From Octopus vulgaris (Eukaryota): a stretch of 64,000 nucleotides of DNA. The translations under genes were made by a program, and so were the position numbers. Shown here piece after piece: positions 4,587-49,161 of the stretch. Positions within the stretch are counted from its first letter, which is position 1. Every line of letters starts with the position of its first letter. The stretch lies in contig OX597816.1 of NCBI GenBank assembly GCA_951406725.2, positions 171,554,001 through 171,618,000 of the forward strand. Direction: 5' to 3'. The notes below the pieces were generated by a model. The model did no database searches. It was not told the origin of the DNA and was given only the letters and a program-made list of their open reading frames with translations.

Positions 4587-4691
4587 AACACACCTTTTGG
4601 GCCAAGGATATCATTTTCTTGCTGACGCAGCATGAACACATAGGCATTGAAGCATGGCTTGATGGTTATCACCAAGTACAGTCTTCAAAAT
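4587..4691 (+). CDS. GPAA1: GPAA1 internal exon (first in window): [34 protein letters not shown]
   Basis: tttcag acceptor, gtaagt donor at 4692, conserved Gaa1 motifs WAKDIIFL and AWLxxYH; phase 1 to 1. Confidence 0.93.
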
Positions 4692-4867
4692 GTAAGTGCA
4701 CAACTTGTATTTGATTATAAATTTGTTCTATATTCAAGATTATGTGGAGTGAATGAAACCAGTGTTCATTATTATTAAGTGAATGATAATGATATGTTGT
4801 TCCTTTTGATGGAATACATTTTCATTGAAATGAAAGATTCAGTAAATATAAGCAGTAAATACAATCA

Positions 4868-5190
4868 TAGGTGTAGGAGTGGCTGTGTAAGTAGCTTGCT
4901 AACCAGCCACATTCCGGGTTCAGTCCCACTGCGTGGCACCTTGGGCAAGTGTCTTCTGCTAAAGCCCCAGTCCGACCAAAGCCTTGTGAGTGGGTTTGGT
5001 AGACGGAAACTGAAAGAAGCCCGTCGTATATATGTATATATATATGTATGTGTGTTTGTGTTTGTCCCCCTAGCTTGACAACCAATACTGGTGTGTTTAC
5101 GTCCCCATCACTTAGCGGGGTCGATTTGCTCGATTAAAAGGTGGTGCTCCAGCATGGCCGCAGTCAAATGACTGAAACAAGTAAAAGAGT
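4868..5190 (+). mobile_element. SINE family A, internally deleted
   Basis: match to the other family A copies. Confidence 0.8.
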
Positions 5191-5221
5191 CCATTTAGCT
5201 GATAATGATAAGTCCTAGACT

Positions 5222-5438
5222 TATACTCTTTTACTCTTTTACTCTTTTACTTGTTTCAGTCATTTGACTGCGGCCATGCTGGAGCACCGCGTTTAATCGA
5301 GCAACTCGACACCGGGACTTATTCTTTGTAAGCCCAGTACTTATTCTATCAGTCTCTTTTTGCCGAACCGCTAGGTGACGGGGACATAAACACACCAGCA
5401 TTGGTTGTCAAGCAATGCTAGGGGGACAAACAAACACA

Positions 5439-5478
<40 letters not shown>

Positions 5479-5645
5479 TACAACGGGCTTCTTTCAGTTT
5501 CCGTCTACCAAACCCACCCACAAGGCATTGGTCGGCCCGGGGCTATAGTAGAAGACACTTGCCCAAGGTGCCATGCAGTGGGACTGAACCCGGAACCATG
5601 TGGTTGGTAAACAAGCTACTTACCACACAGCCACTCCTGCGCCTA
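5222..5645 (-). mobile_element. SINE family A
   Basis: reverse-complement match to family A. Confidence 0.85.
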
Positions 5646-5865
5646 ATGGGTCAAGTCCATTACTATTTTACTTGTTTATTTCTGACTAGCTGAGGTATCA
5701 CTTAGAAGGCAATTGCCTCAGCCCCAGTTCTTACTTCTAAGTTTGGTATTTATTTTCATCATCTCTATTGAACTGCTTAGTTACAGGACATAAATAATAC
5801 AAGTACAGCCTCACACACACACACACATGCATGACAGGTTTCTGACTGTTTCTACCTGCAAAATT

Positions 5866-6235
5866 TAAAATAATAATGAAATTATTGTATACAGTGCTCA
5901 GGTGCACCACAACTTGTCAGAAAGTGCATATAAAGTACATTCAGTAATGTAGAAATGTTTGGAAAGCGAACAATGTATGAGTCAGATACATGCTTGTGTG
6001 TTTATGGAGGGGAGAAAATCAGGTGTAGTGTTGGCTAATCTCAGAAAGCATGGAAGCTTTGAAGGATGCAGTGCTCCGACAACTAACAACTGATGCCGGC
6101 AGTTTGTTCCATGCTTCAGCAACTCTCAGCGTGAAAAAATGTTTCTTGAAGTCATGGGAGCTGTGCTGTTTTCTGACTTTGTAAATATGTCCACGGGTGT
6201 TAGATGGGTGGAGTTTGAAAAGGTGCTCAGAGTTT
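5866..6235 (-). mobile_element. CR1-like LINE 3' end
   Basis: TRGHxxKxxKxxxxxDxxKHFFxxRVxxxWNxLP C-terminal motif plus (ATT)n tail; related copies near 31800-32130 and 34947-35195. Confidence 0.8.
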
Positions 6236-6344
6236 GGCATTGATCAACCCAAGGCTGTAATAGAAGACACTTGCCCAAGATGTTGCATAGGGGAAACTAT
6301 GTAATTATTAAGCAAATTCTTAATCAAATGTTTGCCTCTATTCT

Positions 6345-6725
6345 TTTATTCTTTTACATGTTTCAGTCATTTGACTGCGGCCATGCTGGAGCACCACCTT
6401 TAGTCGAGCAACTCGACCCCGGGACTTATTCTTTTGTAAGCCCAGTACTTATTCTATCAGTCTCTTTTGCCGAGCCGCTAAGTTACGGGGACATAAACAC
6501 CCCATCATCAGTTGTCAAGGAATGCTAGGGAGACAAACACACACACGCATATACATATATACGGCAAGCTTCTTTCAGTTTCCGTCTACCAAATCCACTC
6601 ACAAGGCTTTAGTCGGCCCGAGGCTATAGTAGAAGACACTTGCCCAAGATGCCACGCAGTGGGACTGAACCCGGAACCATGTGGTTGGTAAACAAGCTAC
6701 TTACCACACAGCCACTCCTGCGCCT
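6345..6725 (-). mobile_element. SINE family A
   Basis: reverse-complement match to family A. Confidence 0.85.
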
Positions 6726-7004
6726 ATGTTTAAGAAAATTGTATTACTGGGTTGGGAATTTTTTCATACAATAATGTGAACTCAAAATATTTATTGAAAT
6801 GTAATTCTGAATATGTGTTCAAATATCTAAATCTATGTTTGGGTTTACATACATAAGTGTGTATATATAGGTGGCAGGTTGACTTCTAATAGACAGACAT
6901 TGTGCAACAATATATTTTATAGATTCATAATAATGAACAATATTCATTTACCCCTGACACTCATTAATTTTTCAATCTGTAATAAAATTTGTATTTTTTT
7001 TTAG

Positions 7005-7201
7005 ATGTTTTTCCAGGAACTTTGTGGGGTCGAAGTGGGTCAATTCAAGCTGCTCTTAATTTAGAGATCCCTCTTGAGAAAGTAGCTTATTATAACATCA
7101 AGATGGAAGGCCTCAATGGTCAATTGCCAAACCTTGATCTGGTCAATCTAGTTGTGCGTCTTTGCCGGCGTGAAGGGGACTCTGTGAGGCTGCACAACCA
7201 G
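7005..7201 (+). CDS. GPAA1: GPAA1 exon: YVFPGTLWGRSGSIQAALNLE...EGLNGQLPNLDLVN...LHNQ
   Basis: polyT-tag acceptor, CAG|GT donor at 7202, Gaa1 signature RSGxIQAA and NGQLPNLDL; phase 1 to 0. Confidence 0.95.
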
Positions 7202-7390
7202 GTATCTTGAAATTCTTCATTCATATTTTGTTCAGTTTTTATTCAAAATAAATTTTATTAAAATTATCATCATCTACCCCTTTAGTACTTCAGCAATTAA
7301 TCTCATCATTGTGTTTCTATTTTCACTGATCTTCTGCTGATATATAAATCCATTGATGAATATAAACTCCAGGCCTTTTTTCCCAATATA

Positions 7391-7623
7391 TATATTTCTT
7401 TACTACCCACAAGGGGCTACATACAGAGGGGACAAACAAGGACAGACAAAGCGATTAAGTCGATTCCATCGACCCCAGTGCGTAACTGGTACTTAATTTA
7501 TCGACCCTGAAAGGATGAAAGGCAAAGTCAACCTCGGCGGAATTTGAACTCAGAACCTAACGGCAGACGAAATACGACTTCGCATTTCGCCCGGCGTGCT
7601 ACCGTTTCTGCCAGCTCGCCGCC
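7391..7623 (-). mobile_element. SINE family B (GGCGGCGAGCTGGCAGAA head; GCCTTTCATCCTT..GGGGTCGATAAA core)
   Basis: 15-bp TSD ttttttcccaatata (7376-7390, 7624-7638); empty site in the duplicate segment near 11783. Confidence 0.88.
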
Positions 7624-8005
7624 TTTTTTCCCAATATAGTTTCAATGCTGTTATTGACCATACCACAACCTTATGGGATAAAAATAACAAACATTAGAAA
7701 CTTACTTATAGACACAAAACTTCTTAATCTGAAACCTATGCAAAATATCTGTCTTTCTGTCTGTCTTTAATTAATTTATTAATTAATTAGAAAATAGCCT
7801 AGTGTAAATAGAAATACAAAAGATAAAGTTAATGCTGTGGAAGACCCACATTTTGTAGCTCATCCTAAAAACTAAGCATGTCACATGTGTTATCTAGAAG
7901 AAGCCTGTACATGAATCGTTTTAATGTCTGGAAACTAGTGAATAAAATTTGTTGCACAGTTTTTGACAGGGGGAGATTTCAATCCACTGGTCAACCCGAG
8001 ACATA

Positions 8006-8387
8006 TCTTTATATATAAAAGTGAGGTTGTGTGCTGTCTGTCTCCTACGATTTAGATTCCTAACTACTCCCACATTTTGCGGTGCAGTTTAACCAAAGCT
8101 GGGTGTCTTATAGTCGTGATTCATATCGAGCCCTTCTGGGTATTAGTGCGCGTCTACGATGTGTCTATGATTTAAAAAAAAATTTACCATAAATTTTTCC
8201 CATTTTTAATGCATTTTTGGCATATATAAGGGAAGTAACTCTCTAAAAATTTATTAAATCTCAGAACGTAAAAAGCTACAGTAACCCCCCCCCCCCCCTT
8301 TGTGGTTAGCCATATTGGGATGGCTATTATACTTTACATCTCTAAAAATGCTTACAAATCCCGAGCAACACCGGGCGATACTGCTAG
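8006..8387 (+). mobile_element. Non-autonomous Helitron
   Basis: A|TC start, 3' hairpin, CTAG|T end. Confidence 0.88.
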
Positions 8388-8449
8388 TCTCTTATAATAT
8401 TTCTTTTTATGGTAAACTGAATTCAATCATATGATTAATTCATTAATCT

Positions 8450-8622
8450 CCACTACACTCACGGAGTGGTTGGCGTTAGGAAGGGCATCCAGCCGTAGAA
8501 ACACTGCCAAATCTGGCTGGGCCTGATGAAGCCTTCCGGCTTCACAGACCCCAGTTAAACCGTCCAACCCATGCTAGCATGGAGAACGGACGCTAAATGA
8601 TAATGATGATGATGATGATGAT
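8450..8622 (+). mobile_element. SINE family C 3' part ((GAT)n tail, GGCGTTAGGAAGGGCATCCAGC core)
   Basis: related copies near 590-800, 3110-3350, 24548-24750, 25876-26190, 27560-27753, 29719-30060, 37586-37825, 46278-46600. Confidence 0.75.
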
Positions 8623-8896
8623 TACACCATACAGCATATAATATAATCTAGTCTTGCTATGAAAATTGCTTTGGCTTAATGCCCAAATTATGAGAGGGTT
8701 TTATCAGGAAATAGATTATCACAATTACAAATCTTCTTAGATCCTCCTGTTGTACTCAAGCCAGGTATCTATAAATTGTCTAAACCTTAATAAAAAGAGC
8801 ATATGAAACAGTATATTGAACCTGACAGCATAGGAAGACAAAGTATGTTCACATAGACTAAGTATATTAATGATTATGTTCAGACACAGATTATGT

Positions 8897-9061
8897 TAGG
8901 CGCAGGAGTGGCTGTGTGGTAAGTAGCTTGCTAACCAACCACATGGTTCTGGGTTCAGTCCCACTGCGTGGCATCTTGGGCAAGTGTCTTCTGCTATAGC
9001 CCCGGGCCGACCAATGCCTTGTGAGTGGATTTGGTAGACGGAAACTGAAAGAAGCCTGCCG

Positions 9062-9108
<47 letters not shown>

Positions 9109-9326
9109 TTGTTTGTGTGTCTGTGTTTGTCCCCCTAGCATTGCTTGACAACCGACGCTGGTGTGTTTACGTCTCCGTTACTTAGCGGTTCGGCAAAAGA
9201 GACCGATAGAATAAGTACTGGGCTTACAAAAAAGAATAAGTCCCGGGGTCGAGTTGTTCGACTAAAGGTGGTGCTCCAGCATGGCCGCAGTCAAATGACT
9301 GAAACAAGTAAAAGAGTAAAAGAGAC
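8897..9326 (+). mobile_element. SINE family A
   Basis: full-length match to family A. Confidence 0.85.
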
Positions 9327-9648
9327 TAAATATATTAATGACACTGTACAAATGACTATAGAATTTCTTTATTCTTTGTCAAGATTTCAAGTGCTACAAA
9401 CTTTACTAACTCTGTTCTACGGAATAGTCAAAAAAAAAAAAAGTTAAAAGGGAAAAAACTAACCCTGTTATCTCTAGAATAGTCTGTGCTGGCTAAAAAG
9501 GAAGTTAATATCATTTGTGAGATATGCTTATTTTTCAGGTAAGTTTAGAAATAAATATGGAGGGGGAATAAAAACAGTGTTAGTTAAGGACTGACGTTAT
9601 TTTAATGGTTTGGCTATTAGAGTAATACGTTGGTCAATAACTATTTTT

Positions 9649-10176
9649 AATTAGAAATATTAAATTTCTAAATGTCTCAGAGAGACATCAGCTGTGGTGG
9701 AGCGATAGAGTGGTTGTATACTGTCAACATAACGTGACAATCCTGTAAGGGAATTACACCACCGCTGTTTAGCCCTAGGAAGCATTGACGTTTCCTGTTG
9801 GCTTTGACACATTTCTTGTGTCCTTATATTTGCGAAGGGGAGGCAAGCACCCCCACCAGCTAGGATTCACACCTGAGGACATGCATGTTTCTGGGTCTTA
9901 CCCGTCGTCAGCCCAGGATAGTGGGATCTGCTGATTGAGATGCCTGTCTAGCCTTCGCAAATATATATATATATTTACAGTGAAATCTATTCACTGGTCA
10001 CCGTAATTAGAAATATTTCATTTCTAAATGTCTCAAAGAGACATGAGCGGCGGTGGAGCGATAGAGTGGTTGTATAAAGTCAACATAACGTGACAGTCCT
10101 GTAGAGGGAATTACATCACCGCTAAGACCGTTAAGACCCAGAAACATGTCATGTTATGTTGACAGTATACAACCAC
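9649..10176 (-). mobile_element. Penelope-like non-autonomous element (direct repeat plus inverted fragments) containing a hammerhead
   Basis: 9649-9766 repeated at 10005-10123; inverted pieces at 10130-10176; flanking repeat actatttttaatt (9640-9652, 10177-10189). Confidence 0.7.
9872..9917 (-). ncRNA. Minimal type I hammerhead ribozyme
   Basis: minus strand CCUGGG-CUGACGA-c GGGU aag ACCC a-GAAAC AUGCAU GUC-CUCAGG; stem I 6 bp, palindromic stem III, GUC cleavage triplet. Confidence 0.75.
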
Positions 10177-10260
10177 ACTATTTTTAATTTGCCTGCCAAG
10201 TATTCTTTCTTCGTTGAATCTCCATAGATTTAATCTTGTCATTTTCTTTATTGTTCACAG

Positions 10261-10460
10261 TATGACTATTATGATCCGGATTCACTAAATGGATTCAAAC
10301 ATTCGTTACTGACTATGCTGCGTATGATGAAAACTCAAGCATCTGGATCTCCTTCTGGCAACCATGGCCTATTTCATCGCTACCATATCGAAGCTGTCAC
10401 TCTTCAAGGTGTCTCACGAGCATTTGGGCAGAAAACATCAGATTTAATGGTAACTGGTCG
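10261..10460 (+). CDS. GPAA1: GPAA1 exon: YDYYDPDSLNGFKHSLLTMLRMMKTQASGSPSGNHGLFHRYHIEAVTLQG...TGR
   Basis: ttcacag acceptor, gtaagt donor at 10461, Gaa1 motif QASGxPxGxHGLFxRYxIEAVTL; phase 0 to 2. Confidence 0.95.
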
Positions 10461-10890
10461 GTAAGTATTTTTATTAAATCATCAGCCTCATTCATTTTTT
10501 TTCCATGGTTGAATTTTTATGTTGAGAGGCCTGCAATGTTGATCTATTCGAATTGTCTCTATTCTTTGCCAATGTTATTTCAATTTCAATTTCAAAATAG
10601 ATTTAACAGCCTTATTCATAATTTTCTTTCACCCACCTGCTTCTAGTTCCTTATTCTCATGTCTACTTTTCCATTGTGACACAAGTTACATAAGACTTAG
10701 TGAGATGGTGTTTTTGATCAGGTGTTCCTTCCTGATGCCAACCTTTTTAGGCGATACTTGTTCTAAAATCTGGATACAAACAGTTGCAATGAAATCATGT
10801 CACTTTTTACCACACTTTAGTTGCGTAACAACAATTCTCAACATTTGGGTGGTGGGGACAAACACTCTTTTGGCCCTCACATTCTAAATA

Positions 10891-11044
10891 CCAGAGGGCG
10901 CACACTCTCCTACCCTGATGTAATCTCCAGGGATACAGGCATCCAGCAACAGGACCTCCGTAATGCCATGATGGACCGTGAAGTCTGGCGTAGCATGGTA
11001 AATTCCATTGTCTCAACCACGGTCGAACAATGATGATGATGATG
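10891..11044 (+). mobile_element. 5'-truncated RTE LINE 3' end
   Basis: matches 16243-16400; (GAT)n tail; 10-bp TSD attctaaata. Confidence 0.8.
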
Positions 11045-11145
11045 ATTCTAAATATCAGGTATGAAACAGGAGCAACTATCTCCCTCTTGCTATGCCTCTG
11101 CCTTGCTTTTGTATATTCTCATCATGTTTGTCTTGTATGCATTTG

Positions 11146-11490
11146 AAGGTGCATGGCTGTGGTTAGAGCATCGGGCTTACAATCATGAGGTTGTGAGTTT
11201 GATTCCTGGTCCAGGCTGCGTGTTGTGTTCTTGAGCAAGACACTTTATTTCACATTGCTCCAGTTCACTCAGCTATAGAAATGAAAGGCAACGTCATTGG
11301 TGTCATGCTGTGTTGGCCTTTCCTTTTCCCTTGGATAACATCGGTGGTGTGGAGAGGCAAGGCTGGTATGCATGGGCAACTGTTGGTCTTCGATAAAAAC
11401 AACCTTGCCTAGACTCATGCCTTGGAGGGGTACTTTCTAGGTGCAATCTCATGGTCATTCATGACCAAAGACAGTCTCTACCCTTACTCT
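11146..11490 (+). mobile_element. Older tRNA-derived SINE
   Basis: degenerate A/B-box head; TGTGTTCTTGAGCAAGACACTT core-like segment. Confidence 0.6.
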
Positions 11491-12171
11491 TTACTCTTTA
11501 TTTGATGAGAGTACATATATTTGATAGATGCAAGTGTGGCTGTGTAGTTAAGAAGCTTGTTTTCCTAACCATATGGTTTCAGGTTCAGTCCCACTGCATG
11601 GCATCTTGGGCAAGTGTCTTCTACTACAACTCTGATTAGGCCAACAGAAACTGAGAAAAGCCCATTGTGTGTGTATGTGTGTATGACTTTCTTTGTTTTA
11701 ATCCAAAATGGAGATAAACACCGATGTTTCCACTGATCTTCTGCTGATATATAAATCCATTGATGAATATAAATCCCAGGCCTTTTTTCCCAATATAGTT
11801 TCAGTGCTGTTATTGACCATACCACAACCTTATGGGATAAAAATAACAAACATTAGAAACTTACTTATAAACACAAAACTTCTTAATCTGAAACCTATGC
11901 AAAATATCTGTCTTTCTGTCTGTCTTTAATTAATTTATTAATTAATTAGAAAATAGCCTAATACAAAAGATAAAGTTAATGCTGTGGAAGACCCACATTT
12001 TGTAGCTCATCCTAAAAACTAAGCATGTCACATGTGTTATCTAGAAGATAATTTCTGAGGTATTCCTTAACATGAAACCAAGCCTTAATACACAATTAAA
12101 GAATCGTTATCCACCAATTTGGTGTTGAGTGCTCATTCTCATCATTGGATGTTTACATATATATATATATA

Positions 12172-12401
12172 TTTCTTTACTACCCACAAGGGGCTAAACG
12201 CAGAGGGGACAAACGAGGACAGACAAACGGATTAAGTCGATTATATCGACCCCAGTGCGTAACTGGTACTTAATTTATCGACCCTGAAAGGATGAAAGGC
12301 AAAGTCGACCACGGCGGAATTTGAACTCAGAACGTAACGGCAGACGAAATATGGCTACGCATTTCGCCCGGCGTGCTAACGTTTCTGCCAGCTTGCCGCC
12401 T
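12172..12401 (-). mobile_element. SINE family B
   Basis: match to family B; further copies at 4155-4320, 16961-17190, 23811-24041, 31288-31515, 52994-53223 and in the 19146-21662 array. Confidence 0.85.
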
Positions 12402-12638
12402 TCCTTACGTATATATATATGTATATGTACATACATGTTTGCGTGTATGCTTGTTCTAACCTTATGCAATGGTTGTAAATGAACACCATGAAAAGAATGT
12501 TCTCTTTTAGTCTTACATGAAATAACATGCCATGGGGAAATGTTGTTTTGCATGGAAACAGATGAAGGTTGGCAACAGAAAGAGTATCTCGCTTTGAAAA
12601 TGTACTTCAATGAATTCTATCTGAGACATGCAAACATG

Positions 12639-12678
<40 letters not shown>

Positions 12679-12836
12679 GTTTAACGTCTGCTTTCCATGC
12701 TAGCATGGGTTGGCAGCTGTTAAAATGAATAAGATGTATTTGAGGAAAATAACTATATTTGTAGGGTGAAAACGCCTCCTGAATGTTGAAACCTTTACTG
12801 CCATGAGTTGCTATTGTTTTTTGTTTATTTTTACAG

Positions 12837-12990
12837 GATTGTGGAAGGCATATTCCGTAGTCTCAACAACCTTCTTGAGAGATTCCATCAATCCTTCTTC
12901 TTTTACTTAATGCCTGCTACCAACCGGTATATCTCCATCGGATTGTATATGCCACCTTTCAGTTTAATGACAGCTGCTGGTTTGATCAAA
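12837..12990 (+). CDS. GPAA1: GPAA1 exon: [52 protein letters not shown]
   Basis: ttacag acceptor; highly conserved [19 protein letters not shown] and SIGxYMP; ends at U12 donor ATATCCTTT. Confidence 0.95.
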
Positions 12991-13939
12991 ATATCCTTTT
13001 CACCACCCTTTATTCAAAAGTGACAAAAAACTTAGATAAAACATAAGTTTTTAATATCAGGTTAATTATCATCACTAACAGTTTTGTCTGTTTTTCTACT
13101 GTTTTTCTACACAGAATGGATTTGATTCTTCTTTTAAATTACATTTTTTCTGTTAACCTCTTCATTACTTTTAACAATATGTTTTCAAGCTTTCCACAAT
13201 GCTCCTCCAAATTCTATTATCATCCCTTTAGAGACAAAGCTTACTTAATGCTTCTGTACAAGCTACAAAAACGAAAATACTTCTTTAAAATTTGAATCTT
13301 AGTTGACATATAAAAGTACATATATTTGTGAAGAGAATGATCTTGTATACCTCTTTTTCTAATATGTTAGGCCAATTTATTTTTCATATATTTTTGGCTC
13401 TCACAACATATCTTGTTATTTAACATTTTTATGTTTTATTGACATTAGTCTGAAGAATAGGTACTCTTTCTACTTGAGTTCTTTGTGACCGAGTTAAGGG
13501 GATTGTAGCTAAGATTTGTATTAAGATGTAAAATTTTCAATTGAAAAGTAAACATCATCATCCATCATTTCGAATCTGGGTTTTGTCCTCGTCAACAGAG
13601 GTGACTGGATCTACCTCAATGCCATAGCAACTGCCCTCACACCATCTTGCTCCCTTCTCAAGCCAACCCTCCCAATCTCCTCCTCCACCTGTCCCCTCCA
13701 CATTTTCCTCAGTCTATCTCGTTTTCGCTGTCCATTTACCTCAAAGTCTAGCACCCTCTTCAGAACATGCTCCTTGCCCCTCCTCAACACATGCCCATAT
13801 CACTGCACTCCATTCACCCTTGTCAGCTGTTACACTGATTCCTCCAACCCCAGCATCCCCATCAAGTCTTCAGTCCCCTTATCAAAGAGCCTCACACCAC
13901 ACATTTCTCTCACCATTGCTCTCTCAGTCCTTCTCAAAG

Positions 13940-13976
<37 letters not shown>

Positions 13977-15207
13977 AAACACCATGTCTCACTCCCATAC
14001 AGCATTGCAGCTCTCACACAACTCCTCTAGACTTTTCCTTTCGTCTTCAATGAGAACCTTTTCCCCTATAACAACGCTCCACATTCCCTGAACTTCACCC
14101 AACCAAGTCTCACTCTTGCTGTCACAGCTGCTTCACATCCACCACTTACATCCACCCTATCTCCCAAATAACAAAACCCTCTCACCATCTCCACCTCATC
14201 ACATAGTATTCCCACTGATTTCGCCAGACCTCCACCTCCTTTCTCACATCTACAAACAAACTCTCTCACCAGTCTTGGGATCACCTTCTTCATTTTTGTA
14301 CATCTACCATGAATCCATTTCTCACATCTCGTACATTTGCCATTACCCTCCTCCCACATACACCACATGGATCCACCTTACTCACTAACACTTCTCCTCC
14401 CACCCCACTCACCATCACCTTTGTCTTCCCGAGGTTTACCTTCAAGCCCTTGCTTTCAAATGCCTTCTTCCATTTCCAAAACTTTTCCCTCAATCCCTAC
14501 ATCGTCTCACTCATCAGAACAATATCATCTGTATACAGTATCTCCATTATCAATCCCTCTCTTGCACTCTCCGTCAACACATCAACCGCTTTTGCAAACA
14601 ACATTGGAGACAACTCAGATCCCTGATGCACACCAACTTTAACTACAAACTCCTCTGACAGCTCTGATACAATTCTCACTTTTGTCTCTACCCCCTCATA
14701 CAAACTGGTCACTGCTCTCACCATTACTTCTAGTACACCTCTCTTCCTCAATGCCCATTCAATCATATTTCTTGGAACCCTATCAAATGCCTTCTCCAGA
14801 TCAATGAAGCATATGTACAACTCCTTCCCATTATCTCGGTATTCCTCCTGTAATCTTCTTACAATGAACACTGCATCTATTGTCCCCGTTCCTGGCATAA
14901 AAGCAAATTGCATCTCATCCACATCTCCTTTGGCAGGATTCAAGTAGGCACAGGTTACAAGAAAGAAGCTAAGTGTGTTTTTATTTTTGTATGTTGAAGA
15001 GAGTTATTTGTACTTTCTTCTCCACTTGATTATGGTAAACATGATCACTGGAAGGCCATTTTTATTCAGACGAACATCATCATCATCATCATCATGATAA
15101 TCATACTCATCATTGATGTGATTTTTTTTTTTTTTGTCTTCTATCATAATTTGCTCAAGTATACATAAGAATGATTTAAAAGATACGTCCACCTTAACAC
15201 ATTTCAT
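12991..15207 (+). other. GPAA1: U12-type (minor spliceosome) intron of GPAA1, predicted AT-AT termini
   Basis: 5' ATATCCTTTT at 12991; branch site CCTTAAC at 15192-15198; frame requires the exon to resume at 15208 (GCC ATT TCT TTG TGG) after ...TTTCAT. Confidence 0.85.
13553..14925 (-). mobile_element. RTE-clade LINE reverse-transcriptase fragment (frameshifted) inside the U12 intron
   Basis: QFAFMPGTGTIDAVF, FIDLEKAFDRVP, GVHQGSELSPMLF, LYTDDIVL, KGLKVNLGKTKVM, FCYLGD motifs; (GAT)n tail. Confidence 0.9.
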
Positions 15208-15480
15208 GCCATTTCTTTGTGGATTGGTTCTGAAAAGCCAAAAGACAAAAATGAAAAGAAGCCACAAAAAAGTGATTTAAATTCTTCCAAGCTAGAAAAA
15301 GATGAAAAAGAACCTGAAACAGAGAAACAAGAGAAAGAAGTAGAGAAAGAAGACAATGAAGTGAGTCAGTCGAAGAAAGAGATTTCTTGTGAGAAGAAAG
15401 AAGAAGATCCACTGGAAAAATTGTCTAAAGATGTAAATGATATTGAAGATGATGACAGTTTGAAAAACGACCCAGATGAG
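15208..15480 (+). CDS. GPAA1: GPAA1 exon: AISLWIG followed by an E/K/D-rich low-complexity loop
   Basis: open frame of 91 codons, GAG|gtaagt donor at 15481, phase 0 both sides; K|AxxLW continuity with the previous exon. Confidence 0.85.
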
Positions 15481-15684
15481 GTAAGTAGCAGGAACCATTT
15501 TGGGTAATAACTGTAATAGCTGGTTTAGCACAGTGACTTGATATCAGAGATCAAATCCACTCTACATCGGTTGGAGTGGAAGCAAAAGACTTCCGTTGCA
15601 AGTCTTTTTGCATTATTGGTGCGGTTGTGTGGTAAGAAGCTTGCTTCCCAACCATATGTGTGTGTCTTGCCTGGAATCGAACTC

Positions 15685-15757
15685 GGGCATATGGCGTAGT
15701 GGTTAAGAGCGCGGGCTACAAACCCCAAGATTCCGAGTTCGATTCCAGGCAGTGACT

Positions 15758-15790
<33 letters not shown>

Positions 15791-15963
15791 GCAATATCGA
15801 AAAATAACTTACGAATGAGAACCCAGGTTCGAAATTTCCTCAAGACGCCTGATGAAGGCTGGAGGGTATATCAGCCGAAACGTGTTAACAAACGAGATGA
15901 GGACATATATCCGTCAAGTGTAAATAATGTAAATAATATCTCATCTCCTAAATAGAGAACTGT
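15685..15963 (+). mobile_element. tRNA-headed short element with (AAT)n and a hammerhead-like tail
   Basis: head TGGCGTAGTGG...GTTCGATTCC; CTGATGA aGGCTG-loop-CAGCC GAAAC at 15849-15881; inverted copy of part of the head at 15668-15687. Confidence 0.6.
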
Positions 15964-16001
15964 ATTTTATCAGGAGTCCTAACCATCCTGTATATTGACA
16001 G

Positions 16002-16400
16002 GAAACCTGGACGTTATCAAAGAAGCTTGAGAGGCGGTTGGATGGAACCTACACTCGCCTCCTTATGAGAGCTCAAAATCTCTCGTGGAAGCGTCATCCA
16101 ACCAAAATGCAAATATATGGGAAACTACCACCTGTGTCATCTCTTGTGAAAGGTAGGAGAGTCCAGTTTGCTGGACATTGTTGTAGAGCTGAAAACAAGG
16201 CAATTTCTACTCTTCTCCTCTGGAAGCCATCTACTCGCGATACCAGAGGGCACACACTCTCCTACCCTGATGTAATCTCCAGGGATACAGGCATCCAGCA
16301 ACAGGACCTCCGTTATGCCATGATGGACCGTGAAGTCTGGCGTAGCATGGTAAATTCCATTGTCTCGATCACGGTCGAACAATGATGATGATGATGATGA
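16002..16400 (+). mobile_element. RTE LINE 3' fragment
   Basis: ETWTLSKKLERRLDGTYTRLLMRAQN...RRVQFAGHC...DREVWR; (GAT)n tail. Confidence 0.85.
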
Positions 16401-17292
16401 TGTGTGTCTTATGTCTGTGTTTGTCCTGCTTGATAACAGGTGTTGGTGTGTTTATGTCTCCCATAACTTAGCGGTTCAGTAGAAGAGACTAATAGAATAA
16501 GTACCAGGCTTATAAAAAAACAAGTACTGAGGTCAATTCATTCAACTAAAAATTCTTCAAAGTGGTGCCCCAGCATGGTCGCAGTCTAATCACTGAAACA
16601 GATAAAAGATAAAAGATATAAAGATAGTATTTACATACAAATATATAATTTGGTTGATTTGAATATAAAAACTGAAACCAAATGTACATAGGGCCACATC
16701 TCAGAAGGTTGGCTCTTCTCTTTGGAGCCAAAAAATACTTTAGCCTCTCACAATTACTGACACTCAAAGTTAACCCCACACTGGAGTATAATTACTGTCA
16801 TATACAGGACTTTGCTATCGTTGTATGCACAAACATTTTAGACTGTATCTGGAGAAAGTGTACTTGACTGATTGGTATTAAGTCACTCCAAGACATGCTC
16901 CAACTTCTGGTCCTCCAGGATGCTCTCTTTTTTCTCCACAGTTTTTCTATTGTTAGTATAGGCGGCGAGCTGGAAGAAACGTTAGCACACTGGGCGAAAT
17001 GCTTAGCGGTATTGCATCTGTCGTTGCGTTCTGAGTTCAAATTCCGCCGAGGTCAACTTTGCCTTTCATCCTTTCGGGGTCGATAAATTAAGTACCAGTT
17101 ACACACTGGGGTCGATGTAATCGACTTAATCCGTTTGTCTGTTCTTGTTTGTCCCCTCTATGTTTAGCCCCTTGTGGGCAATAAAGAAACAGTTAGTATA
17201 ACAGTCTCTGCTTCTTGGAATTGGCTGGTATCGTGACACCTCAACTTGGGCAATCCAGACTCACCTGTCTCTCTCTCTCTACCTCTCATCAC

Positions 17293-18964
17293 GTAAGTTG
17301 TTATTAAGCCCCTCCTGTGGCCTGCACTAACCACTATGCTTAGGCCTTCCAGAACTTTCTCCCTGCTCATGTCTTTGCTGCAGTATCAACTTGCAAAAGT
17401 TGATCCTTTGTTGCATCATTTACACCCATACAACTATAAAGAAGAGATAGACCTAATTCAGTACAAAAAGTTTAAAAAAAAAAAAAACTTTTACATTTAT
17501 CTAAATAATCTGTTATTAATAAATCTTTCCAAAATGTATTCAGTGAAAATTTTGAAGGTTTTTTTAAAAAATTGCTAATATTTGTAAAACTTATTATCTT
17601 TCAATGTAAGTTGTTATTAAGCCCCTCCTGTGGCCTGCACTAACCACTATGCTTAGGCCTTCCAGAACTTTCTCCCTGCTCATGTCCTTGCTGCAGTATC
17701 AACTTGCAAGAGTCGATCCTTTGTGGCATCATTTACACCCACACAAATATAAAGAAGAGATAGACCTAATTCAGTACAAAAATTAAAAAAAAAAAAAAAC
17801 AAACTTTTATAGGCGCAGGAGTGGCTGTGTGGTAAGTAGCTTGCTAACCAACCACATGGTTCCGGGTTCAGTCCCACTGCGTGGCATCTTGGGCAAGTGT
17901 CTTCTACTATAGCCCCGGGCTGACCAATGCCTTGTGAGTGGATTTGGTAGATGGAAACTGAAAGAAGCCTGTCGTATATATGTATATATATATGTGTGTG
18001 TGTATGTGTTTGTGTGTCTGTGTTTGTCCTCCTAGCATTGCTTGACAACTGATGCTGGTGTGTTTATGTCCCCATTACTTAGCGGTTCGGCAAAAGAGAC
18101 CGATAGAATAAGTACTGGGCTTACAAAGAATAAGTCCCGGGGTCGATTTGCTCGACTAAAAGGCGGTGCTCCAGCATGGCCGCAGTCAAATGACTGAAAC
18201 AAGTAAAAGAGTAAAAGAGAGAGAGTTACATTTATCTAAATAATCTGTTATTAATAAATCTTTCCAAAATGTATTCAGTGAAAATTTTGAAGGTTTTTTT
18301 AAAAATTGCTAATATTTGTAAAACTTATTATCTTTCAATGTAAGTTGTTATTAAGCCCCTCCTGTGGCCTGCACTAACCACTATGCTTAGGCCTTCCAGA
18401 ACTTTCTCCCTGCTCATGTCTTTGCTGCAGTATCAACTTGCAAAAGTTGATCCTTTGTTGCATCATTTACACCCATACAAATATAAAGAAGAGATAGACC
18501 TAATTCAGTACAAAAAGTTTAAAAAAAAAAATTAACTTTTACATTTATCTAAATAATCTGTTATTAATAAATCTTTCCAAAATGTATTCAGTGAAAATTT
18601 TGAAGGTTTTTTTAAAAATTGCTAATATTTGTAAAACTTATTATCTTTCAATGTAAGTTGTTATTAAGCCCCTCCTGTGGCCTGCACTAACCACTATGCT
18701 TAGGCCTTCCAGAACTTTCTCCCTGCTCATGTCCTTGCTGCAGTATCAACTTGCAAAAGTTGATCCTTTGTGGCATCATTTACACCCATACAAATATAAA
18801 GAAGAGATAGACCTAATTCAGTACAAAAAGTTTAAAAAAAAAAAATTAACTTTTACATTTATCTAAATAATCTGTTATTAATAAATCTTTCCAAAATGTA
18901 TTCAGTGAAAATTTTGAAGGTTTTTTAAAAAATTGCTAATATTTGTAAAACTTATTATCTTTCA
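17293..18964 (+). repeat. Four ~313-bp tandem copies of the intron end preceding exon 18966; copy 2 carries a SINE A (~17809-18225)
   Basis: units start at 17293, 17606, 18340, 18653. Confidence 0.92.
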
Positions 18965-18965
18965 G

Positions 18966-19165
18966 CAGGAAGATAAGTCCCGAGATTTACTGTCCATCAT
19001 ACCAATGATTATCTTGAGTTTCCTTGTTGGTTTAATGACATATTACCTGCCTGATGTATTCAATAGCCATGCACGTCACTTGAAGATACCAACGGATGAG
19101 GCTATCACATATGGACTCATGGCATTGTTCTCTGCCTGGCTTTTCTTTCCGCGATTCATTTCTAA
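18966..19165 (+). CDS. GPAA1: GPAA1 exon encoding two TM segments: QEDKSRDLLSIIPMIILSFLVGLMTYYLP...FFPRFISK
   Basis: ttcag|cag acceptor (NAGNAG), aa|gtaagt donor at 19166; phase 0 to 2. Confidence 0.9.
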
Positions 19166-21662
19166 GTAAGTTGGTGACAAATTTTGGAAAATCTCAAATG
19201 TTTTCAATGAAAAGTAGATAGGAAGAAAATGTTTTCAGATTTTATATTTCTTTATTGCCCACAAGGGGCTAAACACAGAGGGGACAAACAAGGACAGACA
19301 AAGGGATTAAGTCGATTACATCGACCCCAGTGCGAAACTGGTACTTTATTTATCGACCCTGAGAGGATGAAAGGCAAAGTCAACCCTGGCAGAATTTGAA
19401 CTCAGAACGTAATGACAGACGAAATACTGCTAAGCATTTCGCCCAGTGCGCTATATTTCCGCGATTCATTTCTAAGTAAGTTTGTGACAAATTTTGGAAA
19501 ATCCCAATGTTTTCAATGAAAAGTAGATAGTAAGAAAATGTTTTCAGATTTTATATTTCTTTATTGCCCACAAGGGGCTAAACACAGAGGGGACAAACAA
19601 GGACAGACAAAGGGATTAAGTCGATTACATCGACCCCAGTGCGAAACTGGTACTTTATTTATCGACCCTGAGAGGATGAAAGGCAAAGTCAACCCTGGCA
19701 GAATTTGAACTCAGAACGTAATGACAGACGAAATACTGCTAAGCATTTCGCCCAGTGCGCTATATTTCCGCGATTCATTTCTAAGTAAGTTTGTGACAAA
19801 TTTTGGAAAATCTCAATGTTTTCAATGAAAAGTAGATAGGAAGAAAATGTTTTCAGATTTTATATATATTATATATATTTCTTTATTGCCCACAAGGGGC
19901 TAAACACAGAGGGGACAAACAAGGACAGACAAAGGGATTAAGTCGATTACATCGACCCCAGTGCGAAACTGGTACTTTATTTATCGACCCTGAGAGGATG
20001 AAAGGCAAAGTCAACCCTGGCAGAATTTGAACTCAGAACGTAATGACAGACGAAATACTGCTAAGCATTTCGCCCAGTGCGCTATATTTCCGCGATTCAT
20101 TTCTAAGTAAGTTGGTGACAAATTTTGGAAAATCTCAATGTTTTCAATGAAAAGTAGATAGGAAGAAAATGTTTTCAGATTTTATATTTCTTTATTGCCC
20201 ACAAGGGGCTAAACACAGAGGGGACAAACAAGGACAGACAAAGGGATTAAGTCGATTACATCGACCCCAGTGCGAAACTGGTACTTTATTTATCGACCCT
20301 GAGAGGATGAAAGGCAAAGTCAACCCTGGCAGAATTTGAACTCAGAACGTAATGACAGACGAAATACTGCTAAGCATTTCGCCCAGTGCGCTATATTTCC
20401 GCGATTCATTTCTAAGTAAGTTTGTGACAAATTTTGGAAAATCTCAATGTTTTCAATGAAAAGTAGATAGGAAGAAAATGTTTTCAGATTTTATATATAT
20501 TATATATATTTCTTTATTGCCCACAAGGGGCTAAACACAGAGGGGACAAACAAGGACAGACAAAGGGATTAAGTCGATTACATCGACCCCAGTGCGAAAC
20601 TGGTACTTTATTTATCGACCCTGAGAGGATGAAAGGCAAAGTCAACCCTGGCAGAATTTGAACTCAGAACGTAATGACAGACGAAATACTGCTAAGCATT
20701 TCGCCCAGTGCGCTATATTTCCGCGATTCATTTCTAAGTAAGTTTGTGACAAATTTTGGAAAATCTCAATGTTTTCCATGAAAAGTAGATAGGAAGAAAA
20801 TGTTTTCAGATTTTATAAATATTTCTTTATTGCCCGCAAGGGGCTAAACACAGAGGGGACAAACAAGGACAGACAAAGGGATTAAGTCGATTACATCGAC
20901 CCCAGTGCGAAACTGGTACTTTATTTATCGACCCTGAGAGGATGAAAGGCAAAGTCAACCCTGGCAGAATTTGAACTCAGAACGTAATGACAGACGAAAT
21001 ACTGCTAAGCATTTCGCCCAGTGCGCTATATTTCCGCGATTCATTTCTAAGTAAGTTTGTGACAAATTTTGGAAAATCTCAATGTTTTCAATGAAAAGTA
21101 GATAGGAAGAAAATGTTTTTAGATTTTATATTTCTTTATTGCCCACAAGGGGCTAAACACAGAGGGGACAAACAAGGACAGACAAAGGGATTAAGTCGAT
21201 TACATCGACCCCAGTGCGAAACTGGTACTTTATTTATCGACCCTGAGAGGATGAAAGGCAAAGTCAACCCTGGCAGAATTTGAACTCAGAACGTAATGAC
21301 AGACGAAATACTGCTAAGCATTTCGCCCAGTGCGCTATATTTCCGCGATTCATTTCTAAGTAAGTTTGTGACAAATTTTGGAAAATCTCAATGTTTTCAA
21401 TGAAAAGTAGATAGGAAGAAAATGTTTTCAGATTTTATATATATTATATATATTTCTTATTGCCCACAAGGGGCTAAACACAGAGGGGACAAACAAGGAC
21501 AGACAAAGGGATTAAGTCGATTACATCGACCCCAGTGCAAAACTGGTACTTTATTTATCGACCCCGAAAGGATGAAAGGCGAAGTCGACCCTGGCGGAAT
21601 TTGAACTCAGAACATAACGACAGACGAAATACCGCTAAGCATTTCGCCCGGCGCGCTATATT
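19146..21662 (+). repeat. Eight ~309-322-bp tandem units: exon 3' end + donor + intron + SINE B
   Basis: TTTCCGCGATTCATTTCTAA|GTAAGT recurs with GT at 19166, 19476, 19785, 20107, 20416, 20738, 21051, 21360. Confidence 0.95.
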
Positions 21663-22069
21663 TTGAACTCATTTATCATATGATAACATTTGTTTATGTA
21701 GCATCAATTTTTAAATTAGCTTGCTCATGGATTTTTCATTCATCCCTCACTCCAAAGAGAGAGAGAGGGAGACACACACACACAAATTTTTCTTTTAAAC
21801 CAATTCCATGTAAATATTTTTTGATGATAGAAACAATTTATTTATTTGTGACATAATGCTTAGAATGGCGTATGTGTGTCTAAGTGTTCTGGTTGAGAAA
21901 GAAACGGCAGTTTCTCTTTTCTTCACTCATTTAAGGGTTTTAAGGTAGGCTATCTAAGGTAACTCCCATATGTCAATGGCCCTACTTTTTGTAAACTAAT
22001 TTTGAATGTTAAACTAACTTGTAGACATTTTAACTTAAGTTTATTTATATATATTTTTTTTTCTTTCAG

Positions 22070-22246
22070 AAAACCACATGAATTTGACAATGGTTTTCAA
22101 GTTGACTGGCCCCTGTTAAAATGTGTCACTCTCATCTTCCAGTCCCTTGTTCTTTTTTCAATTGCATTAATGAACATCTCTCTGGCATTTTTCCTTGCTG
22201 CTACAATCATTCCAGTTTCAGTCATTGTACAACCTGTGTCAAACAA
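22070..22246 (+). CDS. GPAA1: GPAA1 exon: KPHEFDNGFQVDWPLLKCVTLIFQSLVLFSIALMNISLAFFLAATIIPV...SNK
   Basis: ttctttcag acceptor, gtaagt donor at 22247; WxLLK and ALxNxSLAF Gaa1 TM motifs; phase 2 to 2. Confidence 0.93.
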
Positions 22247-22328
22247 GTAAGTTCTTCATTTTTCTGTCAGAATCCTGTTTTTGAACAGCAACAGGATTAT
22301 CTGGCACAATCTTTTCGCTGTTATTTAA

Positions 22329-22549
22329 CCCTTTAGCATTCAAACCGGCTATACCCGGCCCAAACATTCTACTTGTTTTATACCCAAATTGGCCAGATCC
22401 AACCTTTCATACCTATCCCACAATGTCATTCTGAAAAATAAGCAATCACATTATTGAAATCTTGAAGCTATGAGACAATGCATGGTTGATTCAAAACAAG
22501 GTGAATAAATAAGCATTAGATTTGACAAAGAAATCTGGATGCTAAAGGG
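22329..22549. mobile_element. piggyBac-like MITE
   Basis: TTAA|CCCTTTAGCAT ... ATGCTAAAGGG|TTAA. Confidence 0.8.
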
Positions 22550-22650
22550 TTAACTACAAATCAGCCCTGATTGAGCAGATCCATGGTCAATGGTATTCCA
22601 GCTATGGCTAATCTTTCTTGAACTACATTATCTTAATCATCCTTTATCAA

Positions 22651-22870
22651 CCCTTTGGTGTTCAAATTTCTCTGTTAAATATAATACTTTTTCACTCAAA
22701 TTGTTTTGAATTAATCATGCATTGTGTTATAGCTTTGAGGTTTCAATGATATGATTGTTTATTTTTAGAATGTCACTGTGGGTTAGGTGTGAGAGGCTAG
22801 ATATGGCCAATTTGAATATAAAACATTTAGAATATTTGGGCCGGATATGGCTGGTTTAAACACTAAAGGG
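22651..22870. mobile_element. piggyBac-like MITE, same family, opposite orientation
   Basis: TCAA|CCCTTTGGTGTT ... AACACTAAAGGG|TTAA. Confidence 0.75.
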
Positions 22871-23689
22871 TTAAAATTATATGATATAAAACTTAGATAA
22901 AAACTTAGATATGTTTCGACCAAAGATTGGTCCAGGCCATGTCTAACTTAATAGCACCACCTGATAGGATTATTTCGAATCCTGTTTAAGTCAAGTTTTG
23001 TTCAAGTAGTGAGTTCTTGTTGGGTGAGTTGTATCAAGTTTTGTTCAAGTAGTGAGTTCTTGTTGGGTGAGTTGTATCCAATTATGGGTGGCTTATCTGG
23101 TATTCTTTGAAGGAATCTATCCAGACTCCGTTTAAAGTTGATGGGATCCTTTTCCTCTTTGATCTCCCTAGGGACAATGTTAGGAAAAGAAATTATGTTG
23201 CAGTGTACATGTATGTTGTGATCTTGAATTGGGCAGGGGACGTATGGCCCGTGGTCCCAGTCTTGGATGAACCTTGAAGCTAAGAAAGATTTGACAGTCA
23301 AGAGGTTCTTTTCATGGTCCATATCATTTTACAGAGGTTCCTTCATTGCCTCTTGGAACTTCCATCTAAATATAGTATTTGACTAGCAACTTTTGGGGTT
23401 GTGAGTTCATGTGTATCACTGCTGTTTTGTTCATTCACTTAGCAGTGAACTTAATTGAATGTGTCTCAATTTAACCTCGATTGTCCGTCTTTTTCTGTTG
23501 AAGTTACATGCATCAGATCAACTTCTTATCCAGAGAAAGATCAACTTCTTATCCATATGAAAGGAGAGGCCACTATATATCCAGTTTTTGTTTCATGCAA
23601 CAACACGGGAGCGGAGACACAACACCACTCATACCCAATAATTTATGAAATATTGCACACAAATCTCAAAACTGATTGTTTCCCATTAA

Positions 23690-24149
23690 CCCTTTAGTAT
23701 TCATATTATTCTATCAAATGCAATGCTTATTGTTTCCACATTGTTTAGAATTAATTATGCATTATCTTGTAACCTCAAGATTTCAATGATGTGACTGTTT
23801 TTAGAATGCCTATTTCTTTATTACCCACAAGGGGCTAAACACAGAGGGGACAAACAAGGACAGACATAGGTATTAAGTCGATTACATTGACCCCCAGTGC
23901 GTAACTGGTACTTAATTTATCGACCCCGAAAGGATGAAAGGCAAAGTCGACCTCGGCGGAATTTGAACTCACAACGTAACGCAGACGAAATACCGCTAAG
24001 TATTTCGCCCGGCATGCTAACGTTTCTGCCAGCTCGCCGCCTGTTTTTAGAATGCCATTGTAAAGTAGGTATTAGAGGCTGAATCTGGCCAGTTTAAACC
24101 TAAAACAGGATGTTTTGGCTTGATATGGCCGGTTTTAAGGGCCAAAGGG
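23690..24149. mobile_element. piggyBac-like MITE with nested SINE B (23811-24041)
   Basis: TTAA|CCCTTTAG start; SINE flanked by 15-bp TSD tgtttttagaatgcc. Confidence 0.75.
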
Positions 24150-24918
24150 ATAATCTATAAAAAACCAAAGATTTTCTATAAATCTTGGTTCTGCTTTTTA
24201 GTGGAAGACAAATCAGCAGCATTGTCATAGGAGAGTAATGGCCTTGATAAAGCAATTAGTCAATCCCAATTACCATATTATGTGATTGAAGACTAAGATG
24301 TTTGCAGATATGACACCCTGGAAAGAGATGCTGGCATAATGCGTGTCCTTCCTTTAGCAAAATTTAGTTATATTGCATGGAACGACAGCTGGAAACAGTG
24401 GATTTTACAACAAAGTGATTGAAATTCGATTGTAAAGATAGTGGAATTCTCACTGATACTACAACGAAGTTGGGAATTCAGTTTTGTGATGTAGAATAAG
24501 TTATTGCATTACCACCTGAAGAATCGTCACCCCCAATCCTCAGTGAATCATCATCATCATCATCATCATCATTTAACGTCCGCTTTTCAATGCTAGCATT
24601 GATTTAGATGATTTAGATGGTATCATCATCATCATCATCATCATCGTCCGATTTCCATGCTGTCATGGGTTGGACGAAATGACTGAGGTCTGGCGAACCA
24701 GACTCCAATCTGATCTGGCAGAGTTTCTACAGCTGGATGCCCTTCCTAACCAAATACGTATATTTATATTCAGATATCCATTCACTTGTGTTACATATCT
24801 TTGTGGAAGTTTAATTTAAAATTTCAAAAATTCTATACACAATGTTCCAAAATTCACCGAAGATAGAATAATATAGATTATATCACAAAATATTATTTAT
24901 ATGGTATATAGTATATGT

Positions 24919-25226
24919 GGCGGCGCAATGGCCCATTGGTTAGGGCAGCGGACTCGCGGTCGTAGGATCATGGTTTCGATTCCCAGACCGGGCGTTGTGA
25001 GTGTTTATTGAGCGAAAACACCTAAAAGCTCCACGAGGCTTCGGCAGGGGGTGGTGATCCCTGCTGTACTCTTTCGCTGCAACTTTCTCTCACTCTTTCT
25101 CCTGTTGGCCTCCTTGCTTAGCCAGCAGGGTGGCGTCATTTGAAGGCTAAAACAATGCGAAGTGCATTGTGACCAGCGATGTGTAGCAACATCTGATAGC
25201 CTGGTCGGTCATGGTGATCACGGTGA
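24919..25226 (+). mobile_element. tRNA-derived SINE (Arg-like head)
   Basis: head related to 135-440; TSD atatagtatatgt. Confidence 0.8.
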
Positions 25227-26412
25227 TATAGTATATGTATTGTTGTTTAGCCGCCGGTCATCTTACTATTGCTATTTGTTCACCCAGGCTATCTCCATGT
25301 ATTGATAGCACTGTAAGCAATGTATGAGACAAAATTTGTTTACAGGAAGTTAATGATATGTATAACATAATTGTCGAGTTGTCCAGTATTATTCATTCTA
25401 GTTTTAGGTAGATCTTAAAAATAGCTAATTAGTAAGAGTCATCTCCCTTGCAGTATCAAAACTTCTTAGATAAAAGTTAAGCCTTTTCTAAGACAGAATA
25501 GTTTCATTTTGATAAATGTGTTATTGTCCTTTGTAATTGGTTTAATATTTGGATGCTTGTTGAATGATAACATACACAGTTCTTATAAACTATTGCCAGA
25601 TTACATATCATAATTGAAAATTAGGAACAGAAATGTAAGAGCATTTTTGGGGAATTGAATTTTATTCCTTCAATTTTTTAAAAGGAAAAGAACAAGTTTT
25701 GTTAAGAAATTTAACCTGTAAAATAAAAATAATAAAATGATGAAATAAAAAGAAAAATGGCAAATTCGCTTTAACTCTTTCAGCATTCAGATTACTCTAT
25801 TAAGTGTAATTCTTATTTATTCACATTATTTGGAATTAATCATACATTATCTTATAGCTTTGAGATTTAGATGGTATCATCATCATCATCATCATCATCG
25901 TCCGATTTCCATGCTGTCATGGGTTGGACGGTGCAACTGGGGTCTGGGAAGCCAGAAGGTTGCACCAGGCCCAGTCTGATCTGGCAATGTTTCTACGACT
26001 AGATGCCCTTCCTAACGCCAGCCACTCCATGAGTGTAGTGGGTGCTTTTTACGTGCCACCGGCACAGGTGCCAGACGAGGCTGGCAAACGGCCACGGTCG
26101 GATGGTGCTTTTTACGTGCCACCGGCACAGGTGCCAGACAGAGCTGGCAAACGGCCACGGTCGGATGGTGCTTTTTATGTGCCACCGGCACGATTGCTTA
26201 TTTTAAGAATGACATTGTAGGGTAAGTGTGAGAGGTTGGATCTGGCCAGTCTGAGCATAAAATAGGTAGAATATTTTGGCTTGATATGGCTGATTTAAAT
26301 GCTAAAGGATTAGGGTTATATCAGATTAAGTTTAGGTATCAAAAGATTTCACAATAACAAAGCATTTGTATTTTAATACTCATCTTCATATTAAGTTTGT
26401 TTTAAAATCTTA

Positions 26413-26853
26413 CCGTAAATCCTCGAGTATAATCTGCATTTTTTCCCCCAAATTAAAGGTCAAAATCTCTAGTGCGTATTATACACGAGGTTAAAAATGA
26501 AAATTATTTTCTAAGCAATGTTCGAGTCTCTATTTGCTGTCAGGCAATGTTTATTCAGATGCATTTTGTGATGTCGGGCGCGAAAATACCTTAAATACCT
26601 TAAATCATACCTTAAATCATCCATAACAAACTGCACAAAAAAGCTACACATTTGCATTATGTTATATATACAATAATAATAAAGTACATTACCGTGTACA
26701 TTTTACAAACCAAGGACGTTATATAGACCTCCTTGACTCAAGTTAGAGAAGGGGTGCGTATTATACACAAGGTTTAGGTTTTTCAGAGGTACAGCCCGCT
26801 AAAAATCCCCTGCGTATTATACTCAAGGGCGGACTATACTCGAGGATTTACGG
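26413..26853. mobile_element. Tc1/mariner (pogo/Tigger-like) MITE
   Basis: TA|CCGTAAATCCTCGAGTATA ... TATACTCGAGGATTTACGG|TA. Confidence 0.85.
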
Positions 26854-27122
26854 TATATATATGAGAGGATATTTGAGTGCATATATCAGATGGCAGATTT
26901 AGTAGAGTTTTCTGCAGAATACCTTCTGATTTTTGATTATGAGCATTCTTTCTGGGTTGACTTTGCGTTTGTGTTTCTGAAGTCAATAAAATAAATGCTA
27001 AAATTGATATTATCGACTGTCGTCATATTGGGACACCTGAATGGCGGTGCCCCAGCATGGCCCCACAGCTCGTGAGCTGAAACTAGATAAAATGAAAAAA
27101 AAAAAAATGAAAAAATATCGAA

Positions 27123-27295
27123 TAGGCGCAGGAGTGGCTGTGTGGTAAGTAGCTTGCTAACCAACCACATGGTTCCGGGTTCAGTCCCACTGCGTGGCAT
27201 CTTGAGCAAGTGTCTTCTGCTATAGCCCCGGGCCAATCAATGCCTTGTGAGTGGATTTGGTAGATGGAAACTGAAAGAAGCTTGTCGTATATATG

Positions 27296-27330
<35 letters not shown>

Positions 27331-49026: not shown

Positions 49027-49032
49027 TATACA

Positions 49033-49161
49033 ATGTATGTATGTATGTATGTATGTATGTATGTATGTATATATATATATGTATGTATGTGTGTATGTAT
49101 GTATGTATGTATGTATGTATGTGAATATGTATGTATGTATGTATGTATGCATGTATGTATG

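Follow-up and report, generated by a model that had tools for sequence, protein, structure and literature searches.

A 2217-nt intron that begins with AT and ends with AT interrupts the GPAA1 gene of Octopus vulgaris. Both ends are real: the junction from 12990 to 15208 was observed in assembled transcripts and the T at 15207 in independent sequence. Very probably, transcripts are joined across these positions with the whole intron taken out. The minor (U12) spliceosome likely does this, and the intron is likely the same ancient one that ends in AC in human and in AT in mouse. GPAA1 is an essential subunit of the GPI transamidase. The whole stretch of DNA analysed, 64,000 nt in length, is called the window, and coordinates are positions within it, on the forward strand.

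GPAA1 gene structure and evidence for the AT-AT ends

Examination of the window revealed the following features of the gene and of the intron:

4587..28146, forward strand: last eight coding exons of GPAA1 (4587-4691, 7005-7201, 10261-10460, 12837-12990, 15208-15480, 18966-19165, 22070-22246 and 27852 to the stop codon)
12837..12990, forward strand: exon upstream of the intron, ending on a Lys codon AAA in phase 0 (Pfam Gaa1, E 8e-27; 100% match to the O. sinensis RefSeq protein; contigs of runs X6 and X13)
12991..15207, forward strand: AT-AT intron, U12-type by its sequence, 2217 nt; joint 12990 to 15208 in contigs
12991..13000, forward strand: predicted A-type U12 5' splice site ATATCCTTTT (sequence; the joint starts here; 13 of 80 related loci; human and mouse)
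15190..15198, forward strand: predicted U12-type branch site CACCTTAAC (comparison with the consensus TTCCTTRAY), branch A at 15197 or 15196
15206..15207, forward strand: non-canonical AT acceptor, last base T (joint reaches 15208; X4 record 14 and X5 record 22)
15208..15480, forward strand: downstream exon of 273 nt, AISLW followed by an acidic and lysine-rich loop, ending at a GT donor (15481)

The first ~184 codons lie outside the window. The spliced product has 533 residues, 532 of which are identical to the Octopus sinensis RefSeq protein XP_029633709, and the six other introns in the window are of the GT-AG type. Pfam Gaa1 matched five of the six exons scanned, one of them weakly (E 0.0075); the exon that follows the minor intron, with its charged loop, had no Pfam match. 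This exon nevertheless matches the O. sinensis RefSeq residues at 100%, and spliced contigs continue from it into the exon at 18966.

A total of 24 sequencing runs were listed, 20 of them with the stretch and none recorded as RNA, and four of the 24 were compared, all as assembled contigs. Two runs from separate studies, X6 and X13, were guessed to be RNA and judged transcript-like by their exon-to-exon joints; their contigs extend into neighbouring exons and thus represent spliced transcripts. X4, guessed to be DNA, and X5, of unknown kind, come from further studies under two further organism labels. The joint from 12990 to 15208, skipping 2217 nt with ends AT..AT and no ambiguous letters, was present in both transcript-like runs (depth 117.5 in X6 and 154.3 in X13, which is full exon depth in each) and in neither of the two intron-keeping runs. 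One X6 contig (12961-13498) crosses the donor into intron sequence at a depth of 5.8 versus 102-118 for the spliced form; contig depth gives no rate, and DNA is a possible source of this contig. Since contigs lose rare variants, minor acceptors could coexist with the one observed, and isoform shares are unreadable from such data.

A preliminary description of this DNA had proposed AT-AT rather than AT-AC ends and had named, among other checks, spliced RNA-seq reads joining 12990 to 15208 and raw genomic reads at 15207. The joint in X6 and X13 answers the first. For the second, contigs of X4 (depth 52.7) and X5 (7.3) cover 15149-15560, each with a single difference from the window, at 15372. 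Both read T and not C at 15207, so that the T is independent of the assembly and no assembly error, and both show several differences from the window elsewhere, which means that neither is its source haplotype. That the T is an assembly error or private variant of a true AT-AC intron would agree with AC being the commonest end (16044 of 18226 animal AT-AN introns and six of ten orthologous loci), but given this agreement between separate studies and organism labels we consider it extremely improbable.

Several other features of the gene region were recorded. A tandem acceptor CAG CAG lies at 18963-18968, and X6, X13 and the O. sinensis RefSeq model all use its first AG. A 309-nt unit is repeated eight times in tandem (95% match) at 19146-21663; it comprises the last ~20 nt of the exon 18966-19165, the GTAAGT donor and a SINE-like piece, so that decoy 5' splice sites stand in a row. 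Upstream, at 18226-18964, a 313-nt unit is present in 2.4 tandem copies, which contain the pyrimidine tract of the next acceptor and stop before the AG, so that only the last copy has a working acceptor. At 15481-15510 the RefSeq O. bimaculoides models read through the GT donor and are terminated after about 500 residues, possibly owing to a missing exon in that assembly or to an intron-retaining isoform.

Splice signals, competing sites and a retroelement insert

U12-type introns have the donor consensus RTATCCTTT and the branch site consensus TTCCTTRAY (PMC1635337, PMC3584512, PMC8280824). In octopus, ATATCCTTTT at 12991 directly adjoins the phase-0 codon AAA of the Pfam Gaa1 exon and fits the donor consensus in full. 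The sequence CACCTTAAC agrees with the branch site consensus at seven of nine positions; the mismatches are the first two bases, and the core CCTTAAC at 15192-15198 is intact. The AT acceptor is preceded by no polypyrimidine tract. It stands in frame as TTTCAT|GCC at 15207/15208, yielding LIK|AISLW, at 10 nt from A15197 or 11 nt from A15196; a review gives 11-13 nt as the optimum for introns of this type. A scan of the region 4-22 nt past the branch A showed 15206-07 to be its only in-frame AN dinucleotide: the AC at 15197-98 lies within the branch motif and the AC at 15199-200 is out of frame. These placements are as the preliminary description had given them, from the perfect donor to the unusable ACs.

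All other acceptors across 15170-15239 were also scanned. The in-frame ACs at 15186, 15192 and 15198 precede or overlap the branch site, and the AGs at 15182 and 15237 are without any supporting joint.

The motifs are not above chance in the 64 kb: RTATCCTTT occurs twice (1.77 expected from shuffled sequence) and CCTTRAY 25 times (38 expected). The case accordingly rests on placement and reads, and motifs alone were not used as evidence. So placed, the donor, the branch site and the lack of a pyrimidine tract fit a U12-type intron, which the minor spliceosome likely removes. U2-type introns with AT-AC ends do exist (PMC1557818), and the octopus intron could in principle be one of the major spliceosome with odd ends; a full U12 donor, a U12 branch site at a typical distance, the missing pyrimidine tract and the dependence of the human orthologue on the minor spliceosome make this scarcely credible.

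The major spliceosome might instead use a cryptic pair of sites within the intron, the U12 signals being relics:

13020..15182, forward strand: in-frame cryptic GT..AG pair (frame test), which would add 18 residues

An insert of exactly 18 residues is found in the old O. bimaculoides model A0A0L8HK50, and human cells are known to activate major-type sites in the vicinity of A-type introns. However, the corresponding joint, 13019 to 15183, is absent among the 14 joints listed, whereas the AT..AT joint has full exon depth in both transcript-like runs. The cryptic donor GTGACA is weak, the cryptic AG lacks a pyrimidine tract, and the six RefSeq Octopus members of the protein cluster are all without the insert. 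We therefore regard this alternative as very improbable for the main product, and cryptic GT-AG splicing as possible for a minor side isoform.

The preferred AT-AT intron carries a large insert between its donor and its branch site:

13550..14930 (bounds approximate), reverse strand: decayed, 5'-truncated reverse-transcriptase remnant of LINE type (Pfam RVT_1, frame stops, depth in X4 and X5, GC step)

A retroelement of ~1.4 kb had been described here from the outset, and a Pfam RVT_1 match on the minus strand of 14500-14958 (E 3.6e-18), with stops in the frames beyond it, bears this out. The element, a candidate member of the RTE clade, is high-copy, with very high summed depth in X4 and X5 over about 13550-14930. 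The remnant is about 1.4 kb long, its distance exceeding 500 nt to the donor and 250 nt to the branch site, and X4 contigs span both of its borders. A search for a target-site duplication gave only 7-9 nt matches at chance level. Elsewhere in the window, more decayed reverse-transcriptase elements occur at 35730-36770 and 47111-47329, and long arrays of the (TACA)n type near 48900-52350.

Probable counterparts of the intron in mammals and other animals

The preliminary description had pointed to a mammalian minor intron in GPAA1 and the match of K|AISLW to a mammalian K-ALELW; human KALELW is indeed seen in PDB 7w72, where LK-ALELW aligns to octopus IK-AISLW with the lysine at 388, counted back from residue 395. 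Published mammalian minor intron donors, listed in the supplements of PMC6717393, are AAG|ATATCCTCT in human and AAG|ATATCCTCC in mouse, with AAG|ATATCCTC as the common form. The patient variant c.1164+5C>T (PMC10379968) places the exon end at codon 388, with a C at +5 as in the human donor. The human intron is reported to be sensitive to knock-down of U4atac and of U6atac and to loss of CENATAC (PMC11347168) and to be retained in TALS cells (PMC6800510). By this chain of inference, the octopus position is likely that of the human and mouse minor intron, K388|A389; the mammalian ends are those of Table 3 in Sheth et al. 2006 (PMC1557818), AT-AC for human and AT-AT for mouse.

The human intron (chr8:144084876-144085042) thus resembles that of octopus in its K388|A389 position and its AT-type U12 donor, but ends in AC and is short (167 nt). 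The mouse intron (chr15:76333618-76333794) has an AT donor, an AT end and a phase-0 position after Lys, likely the same one, but has only 177 nt compared with 2217 nt and a retroelement remnant in octopus. The octopus donor ATATCCTTTT has the full consensus as compared with ATATCCTCC in mouse, and the branch sites are CACCTTAAC and GGGTCCTTGACT, respectively.

Introns of this kind are catalogued (U12DB, PMC1635337; PMC10639083; the CENATAC paper, PMC8280824). The octopus intron is the same in kind as the AT-AT subtype of A-type (AT-AN) introns, with which it shares the RTATCCTTT donor, a TTCCTTRAY-like branch site near the 3' end, the lack of a pyrimidine tract and a variable last base. Table S1 of Larue & Roy 2023 (PMC10639083) counts 16044 AT-AC, 823 AT-AA, 701 AT-AT and 658 AT-AG introns in animals (total 18226, 12% non-AC). 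The subtype had been called rare, which holds in so far as its 701 cases make up 0.952% of conserved animal minor introns, about 1%; it is also the second commonest non-canonical end in animals. In plants it is almost absent (4 cases). The same dataset includes O. sinensis, treated as bearing minor introns. A literature search found no paper naming the octopus GPAA1 intron. The preliminary description had overlooked that the mouse intron is already published as AT-AT (PMC1557818); the subtype is catalogued, and the RefSeq protein of O. sinensis is already right. The octopus intron is a further case of a catalogued subtype with no new splicing mechanism, and some freshness lies only in the parallel AT state of mouse and octopus and in the occurrence of all four bases at the last position.

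In a scan of metagenomes 277 relatives were confirmed, the best 80 of which were examined. Thirteen have ATATCCTT at exactly the GPAA1 codon boundary, 61 have no intron (transcripts or intron loss) and 6 were unscorable. One of the 13 (L014) ends inside the intron and the other 12 represent 10 distinct sequences, whose acceptors were predicted from branch site, frame and homology; that of L008/9 alone is also backed by an intron-less relative (L007). The predicted ends are AC in six of the ten (L004, L008/9, L010, L025/27, L049, L066), AA in three (L003, nearest to bivalves; L005; L006), AG in one (L011) and AT in none, at branch-to-acceptor distances of 9-18 nt (10 nt in four of the ten). As orthologous introns end in AC, AA or AG, the last base seems free to drift. 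Non-AC ends (4/10) exceed the 12% background with P 0.024, or P 0.083 when the related L005 and L006 are merged (3/9); the background also under-counts odd ends, and the excess is no more than a weak hint. In L066, a distant relative whose identity to the nearest animal proteins is about 37-54%, the position holds an AT-AC intron of 87 nt (1066-1152), which suggests that the minor intron is very old. Six loci (L060, L063, L064, L069, L070, L073) break off or contain an insert after ...YISIG, some 16 codons further upstream, where the same exon is probably interrupted by another intron.

Mis-annotation by standard gene predictors had also been foreseen. Among the best 120 of 498 protein homologues, 119 were scored at the intron register: 90 continue in the correct A/G-[ILVF] register, 21 run on into the donor (19 with IS[FL] or IFF and 2 with VSF), and 8 are other. 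The 19 comprise 10 named genome models (the old O. bimaculoides model, Argonauta and eight others) and 9 ORF calls made on raw contigs, for which reading through is to be expected. K|AISLW is present in each of the six RefSeq Octopus proteins of the cluster, among them those of O. sinensis and O. bimaculoides. Mis-annotation of this intron is thus common, as those named models bear witness, but not universal, as the correct RefSeq models do. The mis-read O. bimaculoides and Argonauta models finish on His and Tyr codons, with which an intron ending in AC is as compatible as one ending in AT. Read-through peptides VSF, VSD and VIV in proteins P0058, P0092, P0055 and P0026 give a hint, at the amino acid level only, of a GT-type U12 form of this intron in a scorpion and of a possible change to major-type in Capitella. 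The Lottia model (P0089) reads K-ISLFQ-AIALW, and with a Gln codon before the exon the intron would end in AA or AG in the limpet.

Tolerance and possible origin of the terminal T

U12-type introns are defined by their donor and branch site, without a pyrimidine tract and with the acceptor chosen by distance, and when the first base is A any last base is tolerated (PMC1635337, PMC3584512, PMC8280824). AT-AN ends splice productively, at an efficiency below that of AT-AC (PMC1557818). In the octopus intron, U11/U12 would recognise the long donor ATATCCTTTT jointly with the branch site CCTTAAC, and the 3' cut would be set mainly by the distance from the branch A (10 nt) and by the A in the penultimate position. 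Since the intron begins with A, its last base would be only loosely checked, as in the AT-AN class, so that a C>T change would be tolerated. The retroelement would have inserted between donor and branch site, touching neither signal. The C-to-T change at the last base proposed in the preliminary description stands as the most parsimonious history, qualified by the orthologous introns that also end in AA or AG.

The next exon begins with GC in the window and in all ten loci, making an ancestral AC|G a CpG, in which decay of a methylated C may have produced AT|G. The exons have a CpG observed/expected ratio of 0.42 (26 seen, 62.6 expected), with GpC at 0.97 and TpG at 1.41, and are thus rich in TpG/CpA; octopus is reported to methylate gene bodies (PMC9476566). 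Against this step, the depletion of CpG extends beyond the gene (0.60 outside versus 0.55 over the gene span), six of the ten loci keep AC|G while the other four, AA or AG, are unexplained by CpG decay, and AT-AT is almost absent in plants. We lean slightly against the step, taken alone. A limited literature search on CpG deamination at AT-AC introns found no treatment of AC>AT in the sources it covered. A broader conjecture, which we consider doubtful, is that the GPAA1 intron forms a natural four-base experiment (AC, AT, AA and AG, with non-AC ends oftener than in minor introns overall) in which AT arose independently in mouse and octopus through the methylated CpG of AC|G. Were this true and general, AT-AT minor introns of animals would stem mainly from CpG decay at the junction of intron and exon.

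With the octopus case, an AT-AT minor intron of an invertebrate has support from reads, at a site where human carries a disease variant. The case also fixes the GPAA1 gene model, to which a predictor restricted to GT-AG introns adds 18 residues or which it truncates. The occurrence of AC, AT, AA and AG at one orthologous site offers a comparative set on the importance of the final base in A-type introns.
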